DNA of 53,284 nucleotides, counting the filler, from Squatina squatina (lineage: Eukaryota): NCBI GenBank assembly GCA_031763465.1. It is 3 parts of 3 records of this genome, joined end to end, with 100 filler letters (N's around TTAATTAATTAA, not from the genome) between each part and the next. Parts side by side here need not be neighbours in the genome. Positions count along the whole stretch, not along the records: positions 1 to 24,016 come from JARFOE010000013.1; 2 more parts are not named here. One strand, 5' to 3'. The translations under genes and the position numbers were made by a program. Below, in pieces: positions 1 through 23,140 of the stretch (within the stretch, counting starts at the first letter, position 1; each line of letters starts with the position of its first letter). Under the pieces are notes generated by a model. That model saw only the letters and a list, made by a program, of their open reading frames with translations, did no database searches and was not told the origin of the DNA.

Positions 1-1273
1 GTTAACACACTTTTAAACTTTGTTTTGATGTAAGAAATTAGCATGTCCTCTGTAACTAAATTTCAATTTAAGGTGTGAATATAAAAGCATTAAGATTCTG
101 TAGGAAGAACTCAAATCAATTCAACATTAGAACTTTGGCAGATCATTGCTCTAAATGAGCATCATGAAACCAATGGAGCTGTAGTCTAAATATTAAATTT
201 CCTTGATGATTATTTTCAATTTATATTTCCCCAATGTCACTCATTCTAATGTAAATCTTTCTTTCTTTTCAACTGCTGTGATAAAGTAATGCTGCTTTTT
301 GCATGATTAAATATGATGGATAAGATTGGATGGATGAAAATCATGAGCTGTTAATAGTAAATCTGTGCAAATTCAAACGTCAGAATGGTCCCAGCTTGTT
401 CACTCCTAATGGCAGGGAGAATTAGGGTTCCTGTAGATTACCTCAGATAAACAAAACACAACTGGAGGATTTACCTTCAACTTTATAGTAAATGTCATTA
501 CTCACACCCTTTCATGTTCTTCTTTAACCAAATGTTGTTGGCAAAAATACAAATATATTTGAACTGAAGTCCGCCATGTGCTATAAATTGTAGAGTGTTA
601 ATCACGTGTACAATATCAACATTGAAAATTATGTAATACAAAATTTGACGTCAGAGACAACAAATGTGATTGTGATGTGTGTCATGAAATGGAGCACCAC
701 ATAAACTGTATTAGAAGGAAGTTGAAGATTATAATGTAGATTTGCACTCTAAATAATTCAGATTTTGTTCATGTTTTGCAATTTATTAATAAATATGGTT
801 AAAAACGAAGAATATTTACCGGTTGTTTTCCCTTCTTTATAACAGCCCTATTCAAGGTGTACATCCAATTAGAATCAGATAGTAGCCTAGAAAGGGGTTG
901 CATGCACAGCCATCGCCTCTAGACATATGACCCAAACTGATGCTCAGAAGGCAGTCTGCAACCTCCTGCTCACCAGCCTCCTGCGATTAATTCAGCATGT
1001 CCTTGAAACTATCTGCCTGCAATCTTAATGTGGGGGCTACAAGCACTGTTATTTCATCCACTGCGCGTAAAAGGCTTCCGTTGGGGCTTTTTTTTAATAT
1101 ACACAAAAACAAATTATGATTTGATTATGAAATGTGGGTTAGAGTATGAGCAAAAAAAATTAAAACTGTTTCTNNNNNNNNNNNNNNNNNNNNNNNNNNN
1201 NNNNNNNNNNNNNNNNNNNNNNNNNNNNNNNNNNNNNNNNNNNNNNNNNNNNNNNNNNNNNNNNNNNNNNNNN

Positions 1274-1352
1274 ACATGCGCAGTGCACTTGCGAGGTCCA
1301 TCCGGGTGCGTGGGAACATCGTACCCACCCGGGGGGATCGCAATTTCAGGGC
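1274..1352. mobile_element. DNA transposon terminal fragment
   Basis: ggtgcgtgggaacatcgtacccacccggggggatcgcaatttcagggcc recurs almost identically at 38352-38403, and a similar end (gcaatttcaggccc) lies at about 17028-17041. Confidence 0.6.
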
Positions 1353-2074
1353 CACTAATTAATTATATTCACCTTTTTTAGAGGCAGGCACTGGCTAGAA
1401 AGCATCGCCACCCACTGAGCGGAGCAGGTGCTTTGCTCAGTGCAGCCCAATTTGACAGTGGGATCCTAGAGCAGGCGTTAGCCCCCTAAATGGCATAGGC
1501 AATGCCCAATGCCTGCTTTAGGCGGAAGCCTCAGATGCTTGAAAAATGTCCCAACTAAATTTTGGATTGGAAGTTTTTCAGGTGTTTTATACCTGTAAAA
1601 TTGGCGCAACGAGGTCCATTTTCTATCCCAAGATCACACATATTGTGCAGAAAAAAATTGAGCTATTTTTTGCCCAACCATAAAATTGTTTTTCATGTCA
1701 ATGCTACAAACAGAAATATGAGACATGAGCATTTCTGTAAAGTGCCTTGGGATGTTTTGCTATGTTAAAGGCACTTTTTAACTTCAAGTTATTATTATTG
1801 AACGATTACCAAACACAACCTTTAGATCCAATGGCCCTGCATCCTATAGAGTGAAAATTGTAAGGATCTGAATAGGCAAACAAGATGCATAAATTAAATT
1901 AGGCACTTCAAGCATTACATGCATTAAGTTGGGCTTTTCCTTGAATAGGTACTAACTATGTTGAATCGCAAAGAGTTAAATACACCTAAATAGAATAAAA
2001 TTTGCCACAAGTTACACAGGCTCTACAAGACCTGCATCGTTATAAAATGTCTCCAATTTATATCGGAGACAGAA

Positions 2075-2127
2075 GATTAAAAATGAACATCTTCTGTGAC
2101 AAAGGATTAAAAATGAACATCTACTGT
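2075..2127 (+). repeat. Short direct duplication, period 30
   Basis: gattaaaaatgaacatct(t/a)ctgt at 2075 and 2105. Confidence 0.7.
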
Positions 2128-2534
2128 ATTTAAGCACCAATTAAATGCTAACATGAAAGATATATTTATCATGCATACAAACAACTCCAACTCTAATTGC
2201 ACACTATTTCTAGTATCAAAATACTGATAGCACCATATTAATAGTGGATATTTACAGGGACTTACAGTGTTCAATAATAACCTTACGACAAATAGCAAGT
2301 TTAATTAGAAGTCCCAAGAAGAAACTCATGCAAATACATTTTAACGAGCAAGTCATCTTGTCTTCCTATTTATAGACTCGTCAACCAAAAATCATTTCAG
2401 TAGCAGTCACTTTAAGCTTTCTCCTTTTACCGAATAAATAAGAGGAATACTTTTCTTTTTCAGGTCTGGCAGGTTACCTATAACCTCTCTTCCTCCCCTC
2501 CCTTTATCAGCGCGATTAAAAGGCTCATGAATCT

Positions 2535-2640
2535 TCCAGTCCTGACAAAAGGTCCAAACCCAAAACATTAATCTGTCTTTTCTCTTTACAGATGCTGATG
2601 GACCTGCTGTGTGTTTCCAGCATTTTCCATTTTTATTACT
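2535..2640 (+). mobile_element. Penelope-like terminal fragment
   Basis: ccagtcctgacaaaaggtc..aaacattaatctgtc..acagatgctgatggacctgctgtgtgtttccagcatttt is homologous to 49920-50020. A further reverse fragment lies at about 8055-8107. Confidence 0.65.
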
Positions 2641-5384
2641 AATGTTCAATATTTATAATCATAAAATTCACAACATAGAGGCCTAGAAATTCTTTTGAGT
2701 TGATCAGCCGTCACAAACTGAGTGCAGGGAACAATTTTTGTGCCGGAACGTGTCGGCATTAGGCCCATCCAATATTGGGACTCGTGCATCTTTTAAATGA
2801 AAATGCTGAGCTGTGGATACCGACCAGACATCACCAGGCAGCTCATCAGCAAACAGACTTTGAACTTTGAACCATTGCTTCGCCAGCAGCAGTGCTGAGG
2901 TAAGACATTAAAGGGGAAGGGGACTCAATTGGGACGGAGGGTGATCTGGAGATGGAGGTAGTGTTCGGGATGGGGAGGGGGTGATCAGGGGCCTGTAATT
3001 GTCTACGGGATTGCAGTGGAGTCGGGAGAAGGACACCTCCATATCCCAGCTGCACATTCAGGCAAACCTTTTAAGGGCCGCTGGTTTGGCCGCATGTAGA
3101 CCTGATTATCCTGAACTCAACTGGGCCAGCGCCACCTGCATTAAGGTAGCCCAATTTTACACAGGGGGCCTCAAACTNNNNNNNNNNNNNNNNNNNNNNN
3201 NNNNNNNNNNNNNNNNNNNNNNNNNNNNNNNNNNNNNNNNNNNNNNNNNNNNNNNNNNNNNNNNNNNNNNNNNNNNNCTTCCATGCTCCTTGACATTGCC
3301 AAGATGCAATCTGGCAGGTTTGTCTTTTGCCATTGTGTCTGTGCCGGATTTTTGAAAGAGCTATTCTATTAATCCCACTTGCCTGCTCTTTCCCCATAGT
3401 CCTGCAAATTTTTCCTTTTACTTCCATTGAGGTACAACAAAATCAGGAAAGATGTAAAAGGGGCTGCCGATTTACTATCACCTGTTTTACACTATTGCAC
3501 AAAAGTCCATATTACCCCCAATGTGTTGAAAGAGCATAAGGACACACTGTGAGAGGCAAATATGCTGTGCATTGCCATGCTTTTCAAAAATCAAGTCGAT
3601 ACATTTGATCCTTGGTGATTAATTCGGGTTCTACCCTAGCGGTCATGTGGACAAGATCTTTAATATTAAACTGAAACAGTGCTGTGAGCACTGGAGCAGA
3701 ATGTGTCATTTTTTTAAAGATGGATTCACATATTTCAAACAGATTGTCTGATTTTCTTTCTATCGAACTGTGGAAAATGTTGTATCTATTGTAAAATGTG
3801 ACAGTTGTAACGAAAATAAATGGGTATCTCAAACCCTGTTACTAAGGAATCTGTCATGCAATGTACAATAATGTGTCGCATTTATGTTGTAACATTTTTT
3901 CCTATTTCAATTCTAACTATTGATGTAAATGTCCAACAGTAGGAAATGGGAATTTTGAATCAGATCCTTATTAAATAGTTCAGAAGTCAAACATAATGCA
4001 GATTTCCAGGAAACTATCTCTCCCTTTCAAAGTTCAGTTTACAACTCACTGCTTCCATTCTTATTTATTCAGTTGATATTTTTCATGATTTTAATATAAC
4101 ATTTAGGCATAGATCTTCATTGGGTAAAATATTTCTTATCACATCATAGACACTTATTGTATGTTTCTTTAAACAGCTAACAACAACACCTAAGGTGAAA
4201 ACTGAGTCAATTTAGAATTGGTATTGCAATNNNNNNNNNNNNNNNNNNNNNNNNNNNNNNNNNNNNNNNNNNNNNNNNNNNNNNNNNNNNNNNNNNNNNN
4301 NNNNNNNNNNNNNNNNNNNNNNNNNNNNNNGGTGGGAAATCTGGTGAATGGCATCAACTTAAAGGCAACCTGCAACCTCTTAAAGGGAAGGTGCACTTTT
4401 CAATGGTAACCATCACAAAGTAGAAGCAGCGTGTAGCATGGCTTTACCCAAGGTTTTTTGACGTAGCGATGGAGGTAGCCACCTGAGATGCCTGATGAAT
4501 GGTTCCCACTTCAGGAACAACATCTGTGCAGATTGAGTGCAGGTCGTTCCACTGCTAAATTGGTATGATTTGAGACAGTTTTACACCCAAAAAATGATGC
4601 AACACATACCAATTTCTACCCCATTTTTGCTTTGTTTCTTGTGCTAGAATTGGCTACTGAGGTTAAATCAGAAGCATGATTTAGTGCCTCTAAATTACAT
4701 TGACACTAGCACATAACGTTTATTTCTGTAAAACTATGAGTGCATTGTGAGTCTTAAAGTTGTTCAACGTCATTATTCTTTGCCATAATGCCATTTTCAG
4801 GGTTTTTTAAATTATAGTTCAAAGAATGGGTACATTTTGTCCCAGAGCATTCAGGATTACATTAAACTTCATTAAAGGGGCATTAACAATATAAACCTAC
4901 CACTGTAATATTTTACATTATACAATGCACTTTAATAAATCCATTGGCACATGGAAGGACATGCAAAATATGAAAGAAACCAAGACCTTAAGATGAATGT
5001 ATTACTTGTTCCAGAACATTATTCATAAAGCTCACGGTGATCTATGCAGTAGAAAATGCAGCCCCCTTCATCTTTTATTATAAATTAACTGTTAATCAGG
5101 ATGTCACAATTTAGCAGTGCTCTGACATGCTAAGACAGTGTGATATAAAAAAACTAACAATGATAATTGAATCTACTGCTTTTTCACCTATGATGATAAT
5201 CTTCAAATATGACAGTTGAGGTTTTCATGCCAGATCAACATAAGAGGTACTTACAAGCCCAAAGCACTTCTACCTGGAAAGAAAGTTCAATTTACAGGGA
5301 ACTGACAGCACTGATAGCATGGTGTCATCGCTGTTGTGATTAGTGAAATTGTGATTATCCTTCTTTACAAAATCATACACTGTC

Positions 5385-6070
5385 AACCTAAATTGTTAAT
5401 GTTGTCAATGGTGTCTTCATCCCACATCTGCTCCTGACTTAGGCAGTTTAACAGCACAGTCAGTATTTGTGAATTACAATTTAACAATATGCACTGTAGG
5501 TGCAGTAATACAAATAAAGCAGTCTCACAAAATGTCAATGATTTGGGCCACAATAGTGTCACGGCTATCGGCAGGCTGTAAGCCAGACTGAAGGAATTGG
5601 AATAGAAAGTGGTGGACACACAGTTGGGTAGCGATGACGCATTCTGGAAGAGGAAGGAGAGGTTGGTGATAAGGAAACATTTCTCAAGAATGGAGGTGGT
5701 CGAGAGATGTTTTTTTTTTAAAGGAGTGAAGAGAATTAGGAAATTTAATTTTCTTTTAAAAATGGTAGGGGGAAACAGTGCCTAAGGAACCAAAGTAGCT
5801 AATGATGTTGGCAAGCATTAGGCCAAGGAGACTGGTCAGAAATTATTTTGGGACAGTGTCCAGTGAGCATATGATGGTGTTTGGAGAAGATGAGTCAGAT
5901 AAAGTCTGAAGAGCTGTAGGGGAAAAATTGCTGAACTTTGCATGATGGAGGTTGGAACAGTTGGAAAACTTCAGAGAAGAGAGAGCTGGTGGGATGAAGA
6001 AGGCACGGATAGTTTAGGTGATGGTTTCAGTTTTGGATAAAAGCAAATCCATGAGTTACAGACACTTGAA
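5385..6070 (-). mobile_element. Heavily decayed L2-type LINE reverse transcriptase fragment
   Basis: Minus strand gives PLKKKTSLD..VIATQL..FLQSGLQPADSRDT..DIL*DC, matching the L2 pattern LQSGFRP.HSTET..NDIL. Confidence 0.6.
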
Positions 6071-8500
6071 ATTTTACTAGGTGCCAGTGAATATTCATAA
6101 AATTAAACATTTATTGTCAGACCTGGACTAGAAATTTGGTACCACCCCAATTTTTGAAATGTTGAACAAGTAGCGCCAGGTACTAATAATTCTGAGATTC
6201 CAGTAAGTTGGCAGCTAGTACTCCAAGAAAGAACTGGAATGCTAAATCAACTGATAATGACCTCACTAGGGTGCTACAGGGGCTCTAACAGCAGAAAGTG
6301 GATGAATTTCAGGTGCAGTGCAATTGCAAATTAAAATTCACACTGNNNNNNNNNNNNNNNNNNNNNNNNNNNNNNNNNNNNNNNNNNNNNNNNNNNNNNN
6401 NNNNNNNNNNNNNNNNNNNNNNNNNNNNNNNNNNNNNNNNNNNNNTTTAGTTGTTCCTTGCATTCAACCCAGTTTATTTGAGTATTAAATGTTTTTAATT
6501 TAAAGCATTTCTGTTCACATTTTATTTGTCTTTGTACATAGCCAGTCAACCACCTGGACTTTTTCTTACCACCTTTCCTTCTTTTGATTTTGGGTACATG
6601 TTTGTTTTCAACATTTTTAGTTTTGTTCTTAAAAACTTTTCATTTATATTTTACATTGGTCTCAATTTACCTTTTCCAAGTCATCTGCCATTTTGGAGAA
6701 GTTTGCCCTTCTGAAATCCAGTACCAGTTGAAGGTTCTCAGTACCTTTAGTTCTACTAGCCAATTGGAACCGTATTAATAAGTTTTGATTCTACAATTTA
6801 AATACTTTGAACACATCATCTACAGTTTTTACCCTACTCCCCTCGAACTCCTCAGGGACATGGACACTTACTGATCAGATATCCAAGCTATGAGCAAAAG
6901 TCAATGAACTAGAACAGTTACCATAAAATTGCATTACACTGTAAGAGAACAGATAATAGACATGGCCAGTGCGTAGCTGTTCTTCTCAATCAATTAACTG
7001 CAAAAGCATTAAGGGAGTGGAATCCATTGAATGATCAAATTACCACAGTAAAATTCATCACCAGCCATTGGAAAACTTGCATTAGCAGAATGCTATGCTC
7101 CACCAAGTAATAGTTTTGAACTAGAGAAACAAGATTTTTATGACAAGCTGCCTGATGATTTATATATAGCAACATATCAAATCATGACAAACTTATGGTC
7201 ACTGGAGATTTGAATTGAAAAACTGGGACAGAAAGCATGACATTTGAAGAAGGAACTGATGCATACAACATTGGTACAATAAGTGAAAAAAGTAAGAGCT
7301 TTTCTTCTGCTGGAAATATCCAGATTATCATGCCTAGGTTTCCAGAAAGTGTAACCAGAAATCAGATTGAGTATCGGAGCTAAGTGGTGTAAATCTCTAT
7401 AAGACGTCTGATCATATAAAGAATCGGACATTAGAAGTGACCACTTTCTGGTAATAACTAAGACCAATATAAAGAAAAGAAACTAATTCAAGTGCTCTCG
7501 ACTGCCATATGATTTCAACAGATTGAAAGATCCACTTATAAGTGAACAGTTCCAGCTACATCTCTAGGAAAACAGAGATTGAGAAGTGGAACCAATTTAA
7601 AGCCTTGATGGAAAAGCAGTTCTTTGCTACAGCGGGGGCTACTTAAAGAGTAGTGATAAGCCAATAGGAATGGAACCTAAGTGAAGGACAAAAAAGGATT
7701 AAGCATTGAGGTTAGTAAAGGGACCCTTTATAGATCTCTAAATGATGCCGAGGGGAGTAAGGGGAAAAATTACATAAAAGTGTGAAAAAAGATGAGGAGC
7801 AGAGAGCAGCTGCCCAGAATTCTATCAAGGCTATAAAAGTTAATGAAACAACTTATTACACAATCAGGGTCCAGAAATCAGTGTCCGTGAAAAGTAAACA
7901 AGTTACAGTTTTCAATGCAGAGGGCAGAACAATTCCAAGTACTTAACCACCCTGATTCAAGGTTACCACCTCATTTAAGAGCAAAAGGCAAGACTAGAAC
8001 TATTGGAAGATGTGTTGCAAGTCAGAATAAAGGAGGCACAAAAGCAAACTACTGTGGAAGCTGGAAATCTGAAATAAAAACAGAAAATGCTGGAAATACT
8101 CATCAGGTCACAGACTTGGGGCCTCAAATTGTCTGCAGCCACGCTTGAAATGCTGCAGCACTGATTAGCGCCCAAACAGCGCTCGGCATTAATAACGCCA
8201 GGGAGCTCTGAAATTCGTTAGTGTTTTTTCAGTTTCCAGGTGTGGCCTGGAGGTGCTGTGGGGGCGCTGTCTTGAGTGTAGAAAACAACTCCATGTGAGC
8301 CATCACTGTAAAAAAGTGCATTCCCATTGCCTTGATTCGGAAAAGTAGCCTGGCTGCTTGCTTTGCTCCTGTGAGATCAAATTGTGAAAAATGTCTGCAG
8401 NNNNNNNNNNNNNNNNNNNNNNNNNNNNNNNNNNNNNNNNNNNNNNNNNNNNNNNNNNNNNNNNNNNNNNNNNNNNNNNNNNNNNNNNNNNNNNNNNNNN

Positions 8501-8670
8501 TGAAGGCTGAGATAGACAGATTTTTGAGCAATAATAAAGTCAAAGGTTATGGGGAACAGGCAGGAAAGTAGAGTTGAGATCAGAATCAGATCAGCCATGA
8601 TCTCATTGAATGGTGGAGCAGGCTCGAGAAGCTGAATGGCCTACTCCTGCTCCTATTTATGTTCTTATGC
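8501..8670 (+). mobile_element. CR1 LINE 3' end
   Basis: KAEIDRFLSNNKVKGYGEQAGK* followed by the 3' UTR gctgaatggcctactcctgctcct. Confidence 0.85.
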
Positions 8671-9689
8671 TTGTAAAATAATTTGTTCCATTTCAGATTT
8701 GTTAAAATTCAGCTGCAAGTTGGCCTGAAATAACTAGGAACATGAAATTGAGATTTTTTCCTTCCCACCAAGCTGTTCAGAATCCTTCAAATTGTCTACA
8801 TTAAGCTACCTTATCTAAAGCAGTATTCCACCTTTCTTGTGTACGAACTGTAGTGCCCCTTTCAAAATCAAAACTTCTAAAATATAAACTGTTATTCTTC
8901 AGTCAAGGGAACACAGCTTTCCAAGTCCAAAGTATGGCATGTGATATATAATTTCAGTCAGCTTAGTCCATTCTGTAATCACACACATGCTGTGTTTATT
9001 TTCTAGTTGTTTGTGGCTTCTGTGTTGTGACTGCAAGCCAAAAGCAGGAATTAGAGTTTTCTAATTGCGAGAGGCTCTGGTGAAGTAACCGTCCCTTCCT
9101 TAGAAGCGAGTTTCAAGAATTTCCCAGTTCAGGTAGTCAGCAGGCCAGGTGCAGAGTAACTGTTTCATTTGTTAAATCAGAAAGGGAGAGGGAATGGTTT
9201 AGACCCTCAGCTGAAATCTGTCAAGCAACCAATCTGCCTATGTGTTTGTAAGCTCCAAACAGTAATGGCCGACAAAAATTCTTTCTAAAGATGGCGCCTT
9301 TAAATAGTGCTCCTCCAGCTGACTCCCGACTGAAACTTGACAGCTGAAGCTGTCGTTGTCAGTGCCAGACGGTAAGAGGGGGGCGCCACCGAATTTCTCT
9401 TCCAGGGCGGTAACGGGGGTGCTACCTGTGAGCGCCTCTGGAAAACGGTGCTATTCTCGCTGCGCCCAGGTGAAAACCCATTTGCACCCCATTCACATCC
9501 CTCCAGGTGCTAACTGGAGGCAAAAATACCTGCATATCACCCTGAAGGGCTTTTTAATTGAAACAGCAAAGGATAAGGGATGGTTTAACAGAGGTTTTAA
9601 AAATTATGAAAGGCTTTGAGATGGTAAGGGAAGGAAATGGGATGAGTATACTGCTCCAACAAGCACAGGCGCAATGGGCTGAATCGCAC

Positions 9690-9913
9690 AGGAGCACATC
9701 ACCTTCAGGTTCCTCTCCAGGTCACACACAATCTGACTTGAACATATATCGCTGTGCCTTCATCATCGCTAGGTCAAAATGCTGGAATTTCTGAGCATAG
9801 GGATGGCAGTGGTTCAAGAGGCTGCCCAGCAACACCTTCTCAGGACAACAAAGGATGGACAGTTAAAGTGGCCTTACCAGTAACGCTCACATTCTAAGAA
9901 CAAATTTAAAAAA
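9690..9913 (+). mobile_element. LINE 3' end (CR1/L2-group family with a QRFKK.AHHHLL C-terminus)
   Basis: ctgacttgaacatatatcgctg..gcagtggttcaagaggctgcccagcaacaccttctc..A-rich tail. Reverse homologue of 15742-15860. Confidence 0.65.
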
Positions 9914-10194
9914 AGCTTACTTCTGTGCTGTCATTTTTATGATTCATTGGGAGGGACCACCTGAGGCATTTAAAGGCATAGTCAGGTGTCAAAAATCTTT
10001 CCTAAACCAACTTTCAAACTTATCTGAGATAACCTGTACAAATATATTAAATAAAGAAAGCGTGATGACAATGACAAATAACGATCAATATGGTCAGTCT
10101 GTTATAAACACCCTTAAAACATGTGCAAGAGTAATAAGAAATACTCAAAACCAGTGCTATTTAATGTCAATTATGCTTCACAATTTGAAAGGTA

Positions 10195-10622
10195 TTAACA
10201 TTTATTTGTATTTTTACATGTGGAGAACTCCAATTTTCTGAAAATGTTGTAAGTACATGCAATGTACGGAACACTCAACTCACATATAATGCAATACAAT
10301 ATTTAAAAATTGTGTACACTTTACATACCAGTATTGATTTTCTTGCAGAAATTGATCATTTTTATTCATTGACAATAATTAATACAAAAATAATTTCACA
10401 TTTATAAAATAGATCATTGCATCACAATAAATTACAATGATTATATAATTACTCACTTTGTATGTACAAACTAAGAAACTGTCGTAAATGGGTTCACTCC
10501 ATTCCCACAAGGTAGGATAAACTATGCACCTAGGCAATTTAAGGCAGTTTTTTTTCAGTCAAAAACTATTCGAGCAAAATCTATTTATCAACAATATCTA
10601 TAGATCAACTCTAAAGCATTAA
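10195..10622 (-). other. Candidate 3' UTR end and polyadenylation region (possibly HNF4G)
   Basis: Minus-strand AATAAA at 10366-10361 and 10206-10201, a TGTACATA Pumilio-type element at 10468-10461, and U-rich composition. It lies downstream of the HNF4G exons. Gene assignment is inference. Confidence 0.3.
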
Positions 10623-11530
10623 ATGTTAAACTTTGATATTACNNNNNNNNNNNNNNNNNNNNNNNNNNNNNNNNNNNNNNNNNNNNNNNNNNNNNNNNNN
10701 NNNNNNNNNNNNNNNNNNNNNNNNNNNNNNNNNNNNNNNNNNTTGTTATTACTCTGAAAGCTAATCTGATTTGAGATTATCACACACTTCATAAACAGAT
10801 ACAGAATTGTAAGTATTCTGGTAAAAACGAGGTGTATTATTTTTCAGTAAAGCTCCCTCTTCTGGTCATACAATATAAAACCATGTTGTAAAACTTGGCA
10901 GCCACACTGCTGCGAGTAAGAGTATATACCAGAGCTGGTACTGTAAGATATGAATTTAAATGGCAAGACTCAAAACAGGAAAGTTTGCATGAAGAACTAA
11001 GAGAGCTACCTGGTGAAGTGACATTGGCTATAATAATCTTGTAAATTTGAGTTTCATAGTTAGTGAAATCATCAGTACCCCTTGGTTGGTCATTTATTCT
11101 CCACAAAGGCTTTCATTACTCACCTTCAATTTTCACTTACCTTAAAAGTGAAGTTAACCAGTCTCAGAAGGCAGAATTTATGGTTTATAACATAACCAAG
11201 TATGAAACACCTTTCTTCATTGTCACAGCTCTAAATTATGGCTACATCAATTGGAAAATAGTGAAATATAGATGTAAATTGATAAATCTGATCTATAATT
11301 TATAAAATTTACATGAACTTTTGACATGAACTAAGTTTGTTTTGTCATTATACAAATAACTTCAACCGAATCCCTTTAAAATATTAACCTGAGATTGCAA
11401 CTTGTGTTTGAGAGCAAAACCTTTTGCTCCTGAAATGGTACACCCCACAAAACAACAGCATTGGCAAAGACAAGAAATTAATACAGCCATTTATAGTTTT
11501 AAAATTAGGATCTTTTTACTTTTTTTGTAG

Positions 11531-11667
11531 AATGAAGCGAATTCAGTGTAGAGCACTGACCTGTCTCCATAACCTTTTATCAGTATTTGAAGTGGAGGGG
11601 CTTGGAGGACCAGCTGCACTTCAGGCTCTTTCACAGCACCTAACACAGCTTGTTTTCTCTCAGTCAG
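11531..11667 (+). CDS. HEATR3: HEAT repeat-containing protein 3, single internal exon
   Basis: ttttttttgtag acceptor and gtgagt donor. [45 protein letters not shown] resembles recalled HEATR3 [42 protein letters not shown]. Confidence 0.85.
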
Positions 11668-11754
11668 GTGAGTTAATTGGGTAACAACAGCTATAGTTAG
11701 GTACTTAAAATTTCCACTTTTGTCCTTTCCATGTTCTAACTATAGATCATCAGA

Positions 11755-11833
11755 TCATCTCCTAATCTGAGGAAAGACATTCTTGCCATAGAGGGAGTAC
11801 AGAGAAGGTTCACTAGATTGATCCCTGGGATGG
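11755..11833 (+). mobile_element. CR1 reverse transcriptase C-terminal fragment
   Basis: SPNLRKDILAIEGVQRRFTRLIPGM at a contig end. Confidence 0.8.
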
Positions 11834-11933
11834 NNNNNNNNNNNNNNNNNNNNNNNNNNNNNNNNNNNNNNNNNNNNNNNNNNNNNNNNNNNNNNNNNNN
11901 NNNNNNNNNNNNNNNNNNNNNNNNNNNNNNNNN

Positions 11934-12077
11934 TTTGAAGAGTAGGCAACAGCAGTAGCAGCTCTCCAAATCGTCCTCGGGAATCATACTGTCGATCATT
12001 AATGTAATCCTCCAAACTAACTTGCACTTGGTAACGCATATTCTTGATTTTTGATGGATCATTTAAAGCTTTAGCAT
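11934..12077 (-). CDS. HNF4G: HNF4-gamma ligand-binding-domain exon (about exon 8), truncated by a gap
   Basis: Acceptor tattttcccacag, then (D)[53 protein letters not shown] and [14 protein letters not shown] fit HNF4G. Confidence 0.93.
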
Positions 12078-12707
12078 CTGTGGGAAAATAAATACAAGAT
12101 GAAATAAAAATTTGTACACATAATTGTCACTATGAGATAAGAAGGCGATAAGCCGTAGCATAAGACAAACTCATATAGGTGTCAAAGAAGCGAGAGTTGC
12201 CCAATAGCAATTGACCTTTCAGATTGAGGATTTGTTTAGTAAAATGTAGGAAGTGAAAAATTATTTTTTTATTATACAACTGACATCTGTAGACAATACA
12301 GGTAACTTTCCATCCACTACAATTAATAGACAAAAAACATTATAGGCTGTATGCCTGTCATTTTCCAAGAGGTGCCACTCTACACAGTACCAAATTACTG
12401 AATCGCCACTAATATTTCCAACCTAACACGAATTAGAACATCTAGAACATTATTTTTTTTGTGTTTGTGCGGAGACAGAATTTGTACCCACCTCAGCCTT
12501 AACGAGATTCCCCAAAGCAAAGTTTTCAGCTGAATGCATCTCCATGATACGGAATCACTATGGGCTGTTCAACAGCACTTGATCATGAGCCTGACAATTT
12601 GAACTTTTTCCCTCTGCTCTTCTGCAGAAGAAGGTTCCACATTACAGGAGGGATCAACTCCTCATGGGAGGAAGTCTGTTATCCCACCAAATTTAAGGCC
12701 TTGAGAT

Positions 12708-12779
12708 TTTTAAAAATTCATTCCTGGGATGTGAGTGTTGCTGACAAAGTCAGCAGTTATTGCCCATCCCTAACTGCCC
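12708..12779 (-). mobile_element. LINE 3' tail, same family as 15742-15860
   Basis: aaattcattcctgggatgtg..ttattgcccatcccta is nearly the same as 15749-15810. Confidence 0.7.
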
Positions 12780-12879
12780 NNNNNNNNNNNNNNNNNNNNN
12801 NNNNNNNNNNNNNNNNNNNNNNNNNNNNNNNNNNNNNNNNNNNNNNNNNNNNNNNNNNNNNNNNNNNNNNNNNNNNNNN

Positions 12880-12977
12880 ATAGTGTTTTCCTGTTGCTCT
12901 GTCCCCACAGATTGCACACAAAATGATAATACTATTGTCTGATGTGTTCATGGTGTTTGTCTCAGTTGGAGAAGTGT
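12880..12977 (-). CDS. HNF4G: HNF4-gamma exon 2, start of the C4 zinc-finger DNA-binding domain, truncated by a gap
   Basis: Acceptor tttcctcactcag, then (D)TSPTETNTMNTSDNSIIILCAICGDRATGKHY. The MNT.DN stretch before LCAICGDRATGKHY fits HNF4G better than HNF4A. Confidence 0.93.
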
Positions 12978-14801
12978 CTGAGTGAGGAAAGAACATACAA
13001 TCAGTCCAGTTATACTTAGCAGGCAGCACAGTTACAAAGCCATGAAAAATCGTCACTAACAGACACCTGTCATCCTCTCTTGTCATTTCAATTAGTATGT
13101 GCTGTTATGTTACACTACAAAGTGAGCCACATCAAATGCCTTTATTATTCTGATGAGCCTCTTTGTACTGTCAGAAGCAAAAGGATCTAAAGATTCCCTT
13201 GAACATTAATTTTGCTACCACAGTTATTCTTTGATCACGTATGGCAACTATGTGCAATAAAACAGCTATCAAAATCTGTAAAAACAGTCATCTTTTCGAA
13301 AAGGATGTGTTTAGCTGAAGGAGTAGTATCATTTTGCAATGATGTACTTAGTCAATTTCAGGCCAGTTACATAAATTCAAAATCAAATAATCTACATCTG
13401 GTTTCAGAAGGCTGATTCAGGGATGGAGAAATCAAAAGTATATTAAAATATAATTTGTCGTTTAATACAAATGCAAACAGGGAACAATGTGCTTTCTCTT
13501 TCAGTTCTAATGCTCAGAAGAGGGAGCAGTGGAACTTTAGGCATGCTTTCAAATGGAAATGATTAAGACTGACATTGGCACAGTTACAAAACTATCTGCT
13601 GTCTCCTAACAAGTAACCATAAATGATTTCTTAAATGACAAATCTTGTACATTTGCCAACAAATAATGCCTCTTGAGCACTATGATATCAAGGACAAAAC
13701 CTAAACTAGTGTAGCAGGATTATAATATCATCTGAATCACAATCTGAAAGTCATTAGGAATATTTTCTATGTAACTGGGACTAGTCAGTCGAATTCAATC
13801 ATTCTTAATTTCAGTTTGATCTCTTCCTTTTAACTCTCCCACTTGCATTGGAAAATTCTCCATTGTTAGAGGTTTTAGAAAGTAATCCTCCTTAAAACTT
13901 AAGAGACGCACCCTGAATAGAATTAGATTTGGAGAGTGCCAATGTGATAAATATCTAAGCTAATGTCTAAATCATAGCCTAGAAATTACTGTTGGGATGC
14001 TTGATATATTTATTAAATAATGAACCGAGGAATGTTATACAAATGTATTAAGCAGTCATCTACTAATACCTATCACCAACAGTAATTTCCAGGCTCACTT
14101 TACATAAACCAGTATGCCACAAATAATCTGAAATAAATGTTGATTTACATACAAGTATATAGTTAATCCTGTATTGAGTTTGTAAAAAAATAACCAATAA
14201 TTAAAAGCTTTACACTGGTTAGTAATCAGTGAAGGGATGAGGTAACTATTAGCTTGTTATCTAATTAACATGGTCACCGGCCTCTTAGAAATTTCACTTC
14301 CCATCTTGTCCAAAAACTAGTTGTGTACAATTTTTAAGCTCTGGAAAAAAGCTCAATGGTTGGAATGTCTGTTCCAATGAAATTGAATGATTTGAGCAAA
14401 TTAATTAATGAACACATTTAGCTCATAAATGTACATTAACTCCTTTTACTGGTGAAGTTCTCAAAAGACTAAAAATTATAGGATTGAAATAAATGGAGCN
14501 NNNNNNNNNNNNNNNNNNNNNNNNNNNNNNNNNNNNNNCTGACTTTACTTTAAGCTATTGACACACTAATTGACAGCCTGCAAGTAGGTGGCACATGATT
14601 TTAAAAAAAACAGTATCCAGATTTACAACACTACTGTTGCTTATTAAGAGTGTAAGGAAGAATCTCAATAGACTAACTACAGTAAAACTTATTTTAAATT
14701 CATCAATTCTTTATAAAATTTACTATTGATTCATTATATTACTTCAACCTACTGATCTTCATAACTAAGCAATGTATTATCAACCAACTACTGTAACTTA
14801 C

Positions 14802-14916
14802 CATGGGCACTGTACAGCAACTGCATATTTTCAAACTCCAAAGCAGTGTAAGATGGGTCTAAAGCTTCACTATAATTTGCCATGTCCATATCCAAGAACG
14901 ATTCAGACAGCCTCAT
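14802..14916 (-). CDS. HNF4G: HNF4-gamma proximal coding exon 1 (AF-1-containing N-terminus, HNF4gamma2-like)
   Basis: Manual translation gives MRLSESFLDMDMANYSEALDPSYTALEFENMQLLYSAH plus one base, then a gtaag donor. It resembles recalled human HNF4G MRVSEPILDMDMANYSEVLDPTYTTLEFETMQILY. The phase 1 end joins exon 2 in frame (G+AC = Asp). Not in the ORF track. Confidence 0.93.
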
Positions 14917-21161: not shown

Positions 21162-21525
21162 NNNNNNNNNNNNNNNNNNNNNNNNNNNNNNNNNNNNNNN
21201 NNNNNNNNNNNNNNNNNNNNNNNNNNNNNNNNNNNNNNNNNNNNNNNNNNNNNNNNNNNNNACCAAGGGGTGACGTGGGCATGCAAAGGAAAGAATTTAA
21301 TAACAATCTTTTTAAAAAAAAATTCCTCCCCCATCACTTTCTCAAACTCCCAAACGTTACAAAGATGCCGAAATAACAGCGAGAGAAGTCGAGGTGCAAG
21401 TACAAGAGGTTACTGCGGGCGAGAGGGGCGCTCCCTTCACGTGGACTGGCCACTGTTTATCTACTTCACGTCACACGGCTCCCGGGGGAGAAGGAAGAGG
21501 GGGAAAATAAGCCGCCGATTCTTAC

Positions 21526-21740
21526 CTTTACTCTTTTGAAGCCGCGCTCCTTCTGCTTGTTGTCATTGCGGTGGGCCGCGGGGGCAGGCCGGCCGGTGGG
21601 CGGCACCGAGTGGGCTCTCAGAGAGCGAGGGCAGCACAAGCCGAGAGCGCCCGACTCTTAGCTCCGAGCCAGCAGCAAGGTGCGCCCTTCCCATCTGCTG
21701 CCGAGGGCGGCTCGGTCCCAGGCGCCAGGCCCCGGCCAAC
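21526..21740 (-). other. HNF4G: Putative non-coding distal first exon of HNF4G (5' boundary approximate) carrying two uORFs
   Basis: GC-rich segment just downstream of the promoter, ending in a strong AAG|gtaag donor at 21526/21525. The frame that would join exon 2 is closed by TGA at 21565-21563. Confidence 0.6.
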
Positions 21741-21744
21741 CTGT

Positions 21745-21830
21745 CACTGCATCGATCTTTGAATAAACTCCAAGTGGGTGGAGATGTTAAACAGTAACTA
21801 ACGTCAAAGCCACTCGCCCGGCTCCACGCC
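21745..21830 (-). promoter_or_regulatory. Distal (P2-like) HNF4G promoter: HNF1 site, GT/CACCC box, ONECUT-type site
   Basis: Minus strand reads TAGTTACTGTTTAACATCTCCACCCACTTGGAGTTTATTCAAAGATCGATG. It contains an HNF1-type palindrome (21786-21798), CCACCCAC (21774-21781) and ATCGAT (21751-21756). It lies in a CpG island upstream of HNF4G exon 1 in the same orientation. Confidence 0.72.
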
Positions 21831-22866
21831 ACTTTACCTTGTGCCGAACTGGCCCTTCTCGGCTCCCTCGCACTCGTCCTCTACGTTACCTTCTTGATTT
21901 ATTTATTTTTTTAATTATTTGTTCGTAGGAAGTGATGATGTTGGTAAGAAAAGTCATCCTTCCTTACTCATCCCTGGTTTCCTTCAAGTCATCAAGAGTC
22001 AACTTTATGCAGACTGGAGTCAAGCATGGGCCACACCGAGTCGGGAGATTCCCCCTTCCCCGAAGAACAGTTGGGTTTTTAAGCAAAATCTTTGTCCATT
22101 TGTCTTTTCTCCCCCTTTCACAAACAATGATCCTGGCCCTAGAGTAATTGAATTCAAAATTACCGGCTTGCCGATGGAGAGAGTTGAACTTTGAACTCAC
22201 AGTCTCGGAGGTTGCCGGTTCAGTTACCGTACCCACCGGTTACAGTGACAGACATGTCGAGGGGAAAAGAAAGAAAGATTAGAATGGGAGCGGAAGGAAT
22301 AGAGTTCTCTCGTTACTTTGAGAAAAAGCAGTCAAGGTGAAGGGAGCTCACCTTCCTAAGGTTCCTAAGGTTATGGGAAGGGAATGGGAATTTTCCTGTG
22401 CATTGTCCCAGAATCTTTACAGGAAGTATGCACATACTTACATCAGGCAAAGAAAACATTTAGAGGGCTATCTAGAAAATGGTCCCTAGCCATTGGTTCA
22501 AATTTTCCCTGTCATGCATATAAATGTACATTAAAAGTTGGTTGTTGTGTCATAAATCAGCTAATTCGGTTGACATAGCATGGGATAATAACTACAGATA
22601 TTTGAGGTCACATTGGCAAGGGGGAACTACCTTAAAAAAAAGTAACGTCTTACGTGGTTGTTATGAACTTCTCAGGCTAATGCTGGTTCAGCAGTCATCG
22701 TTCTGCTGGAGTTTCTCTTCATTCATATATTAAATGGTAAGGATTGCAGCTTGCAGCACAAACAATTGCAAACCTTGGATGGCTCATGCTACAAAGCACC
22801 CATAGATTGTGCAACGCAACACAATCGCTCTTCGATCAAATCAAATGCTTGTTTAACAATAAACCA

Positions 22867-23140
22867 GGGGCACCCAATTCGTCCTTTTTTTTCGGCGCCA
22901 ATCTAGCGTTAAATCGGCGTTAAGGGCTTAACGCTGAATTAGGCGCTAAATTTGGCGATGGGAAATTCGTTCCCCCTTAATGCTGGCGCTAACTGGGCGT
23001 TAAAGCTTTAAGGCTGAAAGCACAGAGTTCACCATTAGAGGGAATCAATTACGTCATCATTCGGCGCAACGCCAAAAATGGCCGCCTGCTGGAGAATTTG
23101 ACAAGGCTGCTGAGCCTTAAAACTAGCGCTGACAACGTCC
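22867..23140 (+). mobile_element. CpG-rich non-autonomous DNA transposon end with repeated gcgttaa palindromes, truncated by a gap
   Basis: Homologous to 20917-21161. Contains the perfect inverted repeat gcgttaag-gg-cttaacgc. Confidence 0.55.

Follow-up and report, generated by a model that had tools for sequence, protein, structure and literature searches.

A candidate distal promoter core of HNF4G in Squatina squatina and its twin in HNF4A P2

The human HNF4A P2 promoter lies about 50 kb above P1, and MODY1 mutations affect both its HNF1 and its IPF1/PDX1 site (PMC10438950, PMC2923625, PMC3042965). P2 is activated by HNF6/OC-2 and HNF1 (PMC10438950, PMC2923625; Briancon 2004), and its exon 1D is kept in most vertebrates (PMC10438950). 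The element described here, from the HNF4G locus of the shark Squatina squatina, resembles HNF4A P2 in its HNF1 13-mer, its CACCC segment, the similar offset of an ONECUT-type hexamer, its distal position, the distance to a splice donor and a predicted product lacking AF-1. It differs from P2 in having no 1D reading frame, in the replacement of the GATTA segment, in a CRE-like site abutting the HNF1 site, and in its CpG-island context.

A precedent outside the HNF4 family is provided by the Runx genes. Runx1/2/3 possess dual promoters (P1 distal, P2 proximal) and binding sites common to the paralogues, which are taken to predate the duplication (PMC4236176). The two-promoter design and the shared binding sites are found in both families; however, all three Runx paralogues carry tandem motifs for auto-regulation by Runx, whereas in HNF4 a 25-base cross-regulatory HNF1 module is seen in two of three. 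With this precedent the HNF4 case is not a new kind of system. A catalogue of 309 paralogous vertebrate conserved non-coding sequences also exists, and its main text does not name HNF4 (PMC3595034). Like the members of such a catalogue, the HNF4 stretch is alignable beyond chance between paralogous loci and is kept between species at HNF4G, but it is the short promoter core of a metabolic/endodermal regulator and not a long neural enhancer.

For mammalian HNF4-gamma a short form without AF-1 and a long form with AF-1 are described, and the same 2023 review calls it unclear whether separate promoters or splicing give rise to HNF4-gamma-1 and -2 (PMC10450339). Both N-termini are encoded in the shark DNA analysed here. 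While the review leaves promoters versus splicing open, the shark sequence speaks for two promoters that correspond to P2 and P1. PMC7600215 mentions two promoters for HNF4A only, and PMC5574553, PMC4362833, PMC12495751, PMC8582545 and PMC2671044 contribute nothing on an HNF4G promoter core. A likeness between HNF4G and HNF4A P2 was not found in the literature searched, which includes few subscription papers. HNF1A reportedly controls Hnf4g directly in mouse pancreas (Boj 2001), and human annotation presumably includes a distal HNF4G start; either of these points may lower the novelty of the finding.

The HNF4G locus and the element above it

The window, that is the whole stretch of DNA analysed (53,284 nucleotides), is a pack of three stretches of the S. 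squatina assembly GCA_031763465.1, the first of which carries the element (positions 1 to 24,016, JARFOE010000013.1; G000:C13:7039580-7063595). The following features were identified, in window positions except for the last one.

11934..12077, minus strand: HNF4G ligand-binding-domain exon, cut by a gap; top PDB match HNF4-gamma (1lv2, E 2e-22)
12880..12977, minus strand: HNF4G exon 2, interrupted by a gap; the short isoform starts at its first in-frame ATG, 12951
14802..14916, minus strand: proximal coding exon of HNF4G, of exon 1A type, encoding the N-terminus with AF-1; 73-97% identity to 11 proteins
21526..21694, minus strand: candidate distal HNF4G first exon; upstream ATG at 21694, last base 21526 before an AAG|GTAAGA donor; the true 5' end may differ
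21751..21756, minus strand: ATCGAT, a hexamer of ONECUT/CUT type at offset 42 relative to the HNF1 site (HNF4A P2: ATCAAT at 44)
21762..21767, minus strand: TTTATT hexamer, aligned where HNF4A P2 has a GATTA (TAAT-core) segment
21774..21785, minus strand: 12-base CACCC-box segment, 11/12 identical to HNF4A P2
21786..21798, minus strand: HNF1-type 13-base site, 13/13 identical to the site in the HNF4A P2 of the same genome
21799..21806, minus strand: CRE-like TGACGTTA, directly next to the HNF1 site; not present in the HNF4A P2 of the same genome
21262..21900, no strand: CpG-island-like stretch around element and exon, GC 56%, CpG observed/expected 0.87
L020:4777-5019 (G000:C162:5889777-5890019), HNF4A strand: shark HNF4A P2 and exon 1D, with ONECUT-type and TAAT-core segments intact

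The minus-strand string that the original prediction quoted from upstream of HNF4G is found letter for letter at 21798-21750, within the 21745-21830 interval. Its motif names rest on consensus patterns. We take the 13-mer as an HNF1-type site with two mismatches to the HNF1 consensus, ATCGAT/ATCAAT as an ONECUT/CUT-type motif and the octamer TGACGTTA as CRE-like; TTTATT may be a core of CDX/posterior-HOX type. A hexamer of the latter kind is expected by chance in the 17-base gap where it stands with a probability of about 3%.

The gene downstream was predicted to be HNF4G and not HNF4A, and the best PDB match, the identities of the proximal exon and the existence of separate alpha and beta loci all agree with this. 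Ten of the 11 proteins matched by the proximal exon are named HNF4-gamma by NCBI, and one is a hypothetical shark protein. The scaffold holds only three HNF4G exons; over window positions 1-14800 most exons, both beyond exon 2 and at the end of the gene, are missing. Exon 2 (12880-12977, minus strand) reads SIIILC where the listed shark and ray proteins all have G/E-I/V/M-S/N-x-x-C, so that a few unusual substitutions stand ahead of the zinc finger.

In total the genome has three HNF4 genes, named by their best hits: gamma on C13 (the window), alpha on C162 and beta on C16. With HNF4-alpha of sharks and skate the C162 proximal exon shares 97-100% identity, and the C16 gene is 89-97% identical to shark HNF4-beta. 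A scan with the Pfam profile PF00104 was too patchy to list the paralogues. A tree of 17 HNF4 proteins splits into three groups with good support, in which alpha joins gamma against beta under midpoint rooting only; the order of duplication cannot be read from this tree, which has no outgroup.

The neighbours of the three genes were compared with the human blocks: GST-fold GDAP1L1-like exons at HNF4A, CAP-family exons at HNF4G, and cofilin-like, kelch, USP and DHHC genes at HNF4B. We assume that these neighbours fit human paralogous blocks. The GDAP1L1-like exons stand just about 11 kb above HNF4A P2 (G000:C162:5.857-5.922 Mb, L017-L023), a region with large gaps in which no CAP-family (R3HDML-like) match is listed. 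Shark HNF4B (G000:C16:19.40-19.48 Mb, L026-L034) lies between ubiquitin-hydrolase and DHHC genes, after cofilin-like and kelch genes, which we take to be USP10, ZDHHC7, COTL1 and KLHL36.

The assembly is very gapped, and the element is carried by a piece of 1,879 bases (21262-23140) between two 100-N gaps. A dispersed repeat of 270 bases with at least 39 other matches (87-90%) occupies 22868-23140 of this piece, and a decayed repeat remnant is found at about 21907-22080, starting some 110 bases upstream of the element.

Likeness to the HNF4A P2 of the same genome

The original prediction compared the element with a human P2 string; this reference was replaced by the shark's own HNF4A P2. When the element was aligned locally to both strands of the 100 kb surrounding each HNF4 paralogue, the top match was C162:5889777-5889820, on the HNF4A strand and separated from exon 1A by 32 kb of scaffold; around HNF4B nothing rose above background. 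Across HNF1 site and CACCC box the two copies agree at 24 of 25 bases. Aligned with the sequence upstream of HNF4A exon 1A (27,460 bases without N), the 86 bases of 21745-21830 scored 56, compared to 27.5 +/- 2.4 (maximum 40) for 300 dinucleotide shuffles.

The C162 match is the shark P2 promoter, because exon 1D stands behind it: 194 bases past the matched site there is a 16-codon exon with a phase-1 GTGAGT donor, whose peptide is identical at 12/16 residues to the chicken (NP_001383735.1) and at 6/16 to the human N-terminus (NP_787110.2). Exon 1D-like N-termini are also found in a ray, sturgeon and paddlefish.

The likeness was predicted to exceed chance outside the HNF1 motif, and it does. 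The 39 bases following the 13-base motif score 26 versus 6.0 +/- 2.9 for shuffles, none of 5000 of which reaches 26. Most of this signal comes from the 12-base CACCC segment (11/12 identical, p 0.02 on shuffling so short a piece), while the last 27 bases beyond the CACCC box have p = 0.09 on their own. The predicted common order and spacing of HNF1, CACCC and ONECUT-type sites holds firmly for the first two. For the third the offsets of ATCGAT and ATCAAT are close (42 and 44), and a pre-specified ATCRAT would fall within three bases by chance with a probability of about 0.004, but its own segment stays at p 0.09. The strongly supported shared core is HNF1 plus CACCC, 25 bases. The prediction also had the TAAT core of the HNF4A version replaced at HNF4G, and this is what the alignment gives: TTTATT stands in the place of that segment, with the GATTA itself facing TATTC, and the TAAT-core segment is not kept. 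We take this base range in HNF4A P2 to be the PDX1 site.

Further matches of 21864-22080 and 21262-21390 to the HNF4A region turned out to be repeat remnants or A/T runs. A BLAST-type search with the 81-base element against the same genome returned only the self-match, the method being too insensitive for a 25-base core. Above HNF4B no P2-like element was seen, the best score of 27 in 48,306 bases being background; a third of the HNF4B upstream region consists of gaps (18,942 of 27,851 bases read), so that this negative does not mean absence. Three alternative RefSeq N-termini of HNF4B likewise had no match on the fetched C16 DNA, a third of the region being gaps, and given these models with other N-termini HNF4B may have a distal exon of its own.

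The candidate distal exon and its predicted product

The distance from the HNF1 site to the donor is 273 bases at HNF4G and 243 at HNF4A. The frame of the candidate exon into exon 2 is shut by a stop and has no ATG, no 16-residue 1D peptide is encoded, and the exon contains two short upstream ORFs, one from 21694 and one from 21566. Because the distal exon has no open frame into exon 2, it is likely, judged from the sequence, to yield the short HNF4-gamma-1 without AF-1. Of 50 listed HNF4G proteins from cartilaginous fishes, 25 begin at the proximal exon, 20 (from 17 species) at the exon-2 methionine and five otherwise. Short models starting in exon 2 exist for HNF4A and HNF4B too.

Just inside the intron that follows the candidate exon, at 21436-21477 on the minus strand, TGACGTGA, AGATAA and CACGTG occur within 45 bases; we assume AGATAA to be GATA-like and CACGTG to be an E-box.

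In two models of Chiloscyllium plagiosum (XP_043545072/3) exon 2 is preceded by an N-terminus of 50 residues that joins it. In a frameshift-tolerant comparison with 297 blocks this N-terminus fits best on the candidate exon, with a score of 47 versus 26.3 +/- 4.8 and 37 for the next block; 2 of 2000 shuffles reach 47 (p about 0.0015). Both of its ends resemble the window translation, one at the upstream ATG and the other just before the donor. XP_ records are RefSeq predictions, and this N-terminus occurs in only two of the 50 proteins. Two other HNF4G N-termini, both from rays, and an internal variant gave background scores on the element's contig (29, 31 and 23).

The sequence twin, the identities of both genes, exon 1D behind the HNF4A copy, the donor and the closed frame are direct observations. 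They make it probable, in our judgement, that the element is the core of a distal HNF4G promoter, inherited together with HNF4A P2 from the duplication that split the two genes. In S. squatina HNF1A/B would then bind the 13-base site, assisted by a CACCC-box factor and probably an ONECUT factor, and transcription would start in the CpG-rich non-coding first exon. Splicing is predicted to join 21526 directly to exon 2 and leave out the proximal exon, with translation from the exon-2 methionine giving HNF4-gamma-1 without the AF-1 activation region, the same outcome as with HNF4A P2; the proximal exon would give HNF4-gamma-2. The dual-promoter layout had been predicted to predate the HNF4A/HNF4G split and to have left the paralogues alignable. 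The alignments support this, and the bamboo shark has a homologous exon that comes first in a predicted HNF4G model.

Alternative readings and meaning for the HNF4 family

The twin could be real and ancient and nevertheless serve at HNF4G now as an HNF1-bound enhancer, or lie within the 5' UTR of a broad CpG-island promoter. We consider this unlikely, although several observations speak for it. The setting is CpG-island-like at HNF4G but not at HNF4A P2 (GC 37%, CpG o/e 0.42), and the coding exon 1D has not been kept. In addition, contigs of other organisms cover the element in two (X2 and X7) of the four runs used for comparison, out of 14 with small word shares. Both contigs extend beyond the HNF1 site on its upstream side, one as far as about 21860 and one past 21835.

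The X2 contig covers 21652-21809 with 16 differing letters, four of them unplaced. All 12 listed substitutions fall downstream at 21691-21734, one of them in the upstream ATG, and none at 21735-21809. The X7 contig covers 21740-21835 with four differences, all unplaced, and a 7-base tandem duplication that spares the HNF1 13-mer. This duplication changes the spacing of the CRE-like octamer to the HNF1 site. X7 is probably DNA, and the RNA status of both contigs is a guess; the lack of a contig in X1 and X3 is no evidence of absence. Because both contigs continue upstream of the HNF1 site they are evidence of conservation at HNF4G and not of transcription, and no run recorded as RNA contains 21400-21900. 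If they are RNA, transcription would start above the element. However, the covering contigs may be DNA, the donor stands at a P2-like distance, and the decayed repeat about 110 bases upstream leaves little space for another conserved core. We prefer the distal promoter core as the reading of the element.

Reference-guided scaffolding could have misplaced the contig, whose true locus would then be elsewhere, e.g. as a distal promoter of HNF4B; this we rate as very improbable. The element stands 6.9 kb of scaffold from the proximal HNF4G ATG (14916), on the same strand, across four 100-N gaps of unknown size, and the contig itself has 100-N gaps on both sides. A teneurin exon (L044:8295-8606, plus strand, G000:C13 at about 7.028 Mb; best PDB match teneurin-4, E 3e-23) is found on the same scaffold about 11 kb past the HNF4G 3' side, that is about 11 kb beyond the left end of the window, where the human gene order has ZFHX4. 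Either the gene order differs here or the scaffolding is wrong, and as the exon is at odds with the human order scaffolding errors are a concern; with the four gaps and this exon nearby, placement errors are possible. That no P2-like element was seen above HNF4B, in the bases read there, would also fit a misplaced contig. On the other side, CAP-family exons lie farther upstream of the element on the HNF4G strand, in the expected order; we take them to be CRISPLD1-like, CRISPLD1/PI15 presumably holding that place in human. Moreover, the N-terminus of the bamboo-shark model, which is named HNF4G, maps on the element's contig, and this sequence match is an independent link of the contig to HNF4G.

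That HNF4A and HNF4G underwent a short gene conversion within the shark lineage, instead of retention since the duplication, is a shade less probable again. The identity of 24/25 is very high for such old copies, which split some 500 million years ago. But identity decays motif by motif, as selection on binding sites predicts, and both flanks are unalignable: neither the 40 bases upstream of the core nor bases 53-99 downstream align between HNF4G and HNF4A, and a global alignment of the two first exons gave no likeness outside the core. The genes are on different scaffolds, and the HNF4G version is kept in other organisms.

That two HNF1 targets each gained an HNF1 site beside a CACCC box by chance or convergence is the least probable reading and already largely refuted at the sequence level by pattern search, shuffles and 13-mer comparison: although both motifs are short and common and the third segment is not significant alone, all 13 positions agree, non-consensus bases included, and of 435 HNF1-like 13-mers in the fetched DNA only those at HNF4A (12) and HNF4G (11) have more than 8/12 matches in the next segment, the remaining 433 having at most 8/12. 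When up to two mismatches are allowed, a degenerate pattern of 25 letters matches just two places in 1.5 Gb, both exact, which are the HNF4G and HNF4A sites; its reversed control finds one place, and as the pattern was written after the twin was known the count speaks for rarity and not for independent discovery.

With the distal promoter core as the preferred reading, we lean slightly towards a wider one. The HNF4G of all jawed vertebrates including people would keep a true twin of the MODY1 P2 promoter, HNF4-gamma-1 and -2 would be duplicated counterparts of the HNF4A P2 and P1 isoforms, and the HNF1-to-HNF4 feedback would predate the second vertebrate genome duplication, the HNF4G copy having later lost exon 1D and swapped the PDX1-type site.

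Through its analogy with the best-studied diabetes promoter, the comparison maps a likely HNF4G promoter at base level and makes the two-promoter question for HNF4-gamma-1 and -2 directly testable. If common descent is true, the HNF1-to-HNF4 link and the switch between forms with and without AF-1 would date from before the HNF4A/HNF4G split, and the shared promoter may help to explain the mutual backup of HNF4A and HNF4G in the gut.
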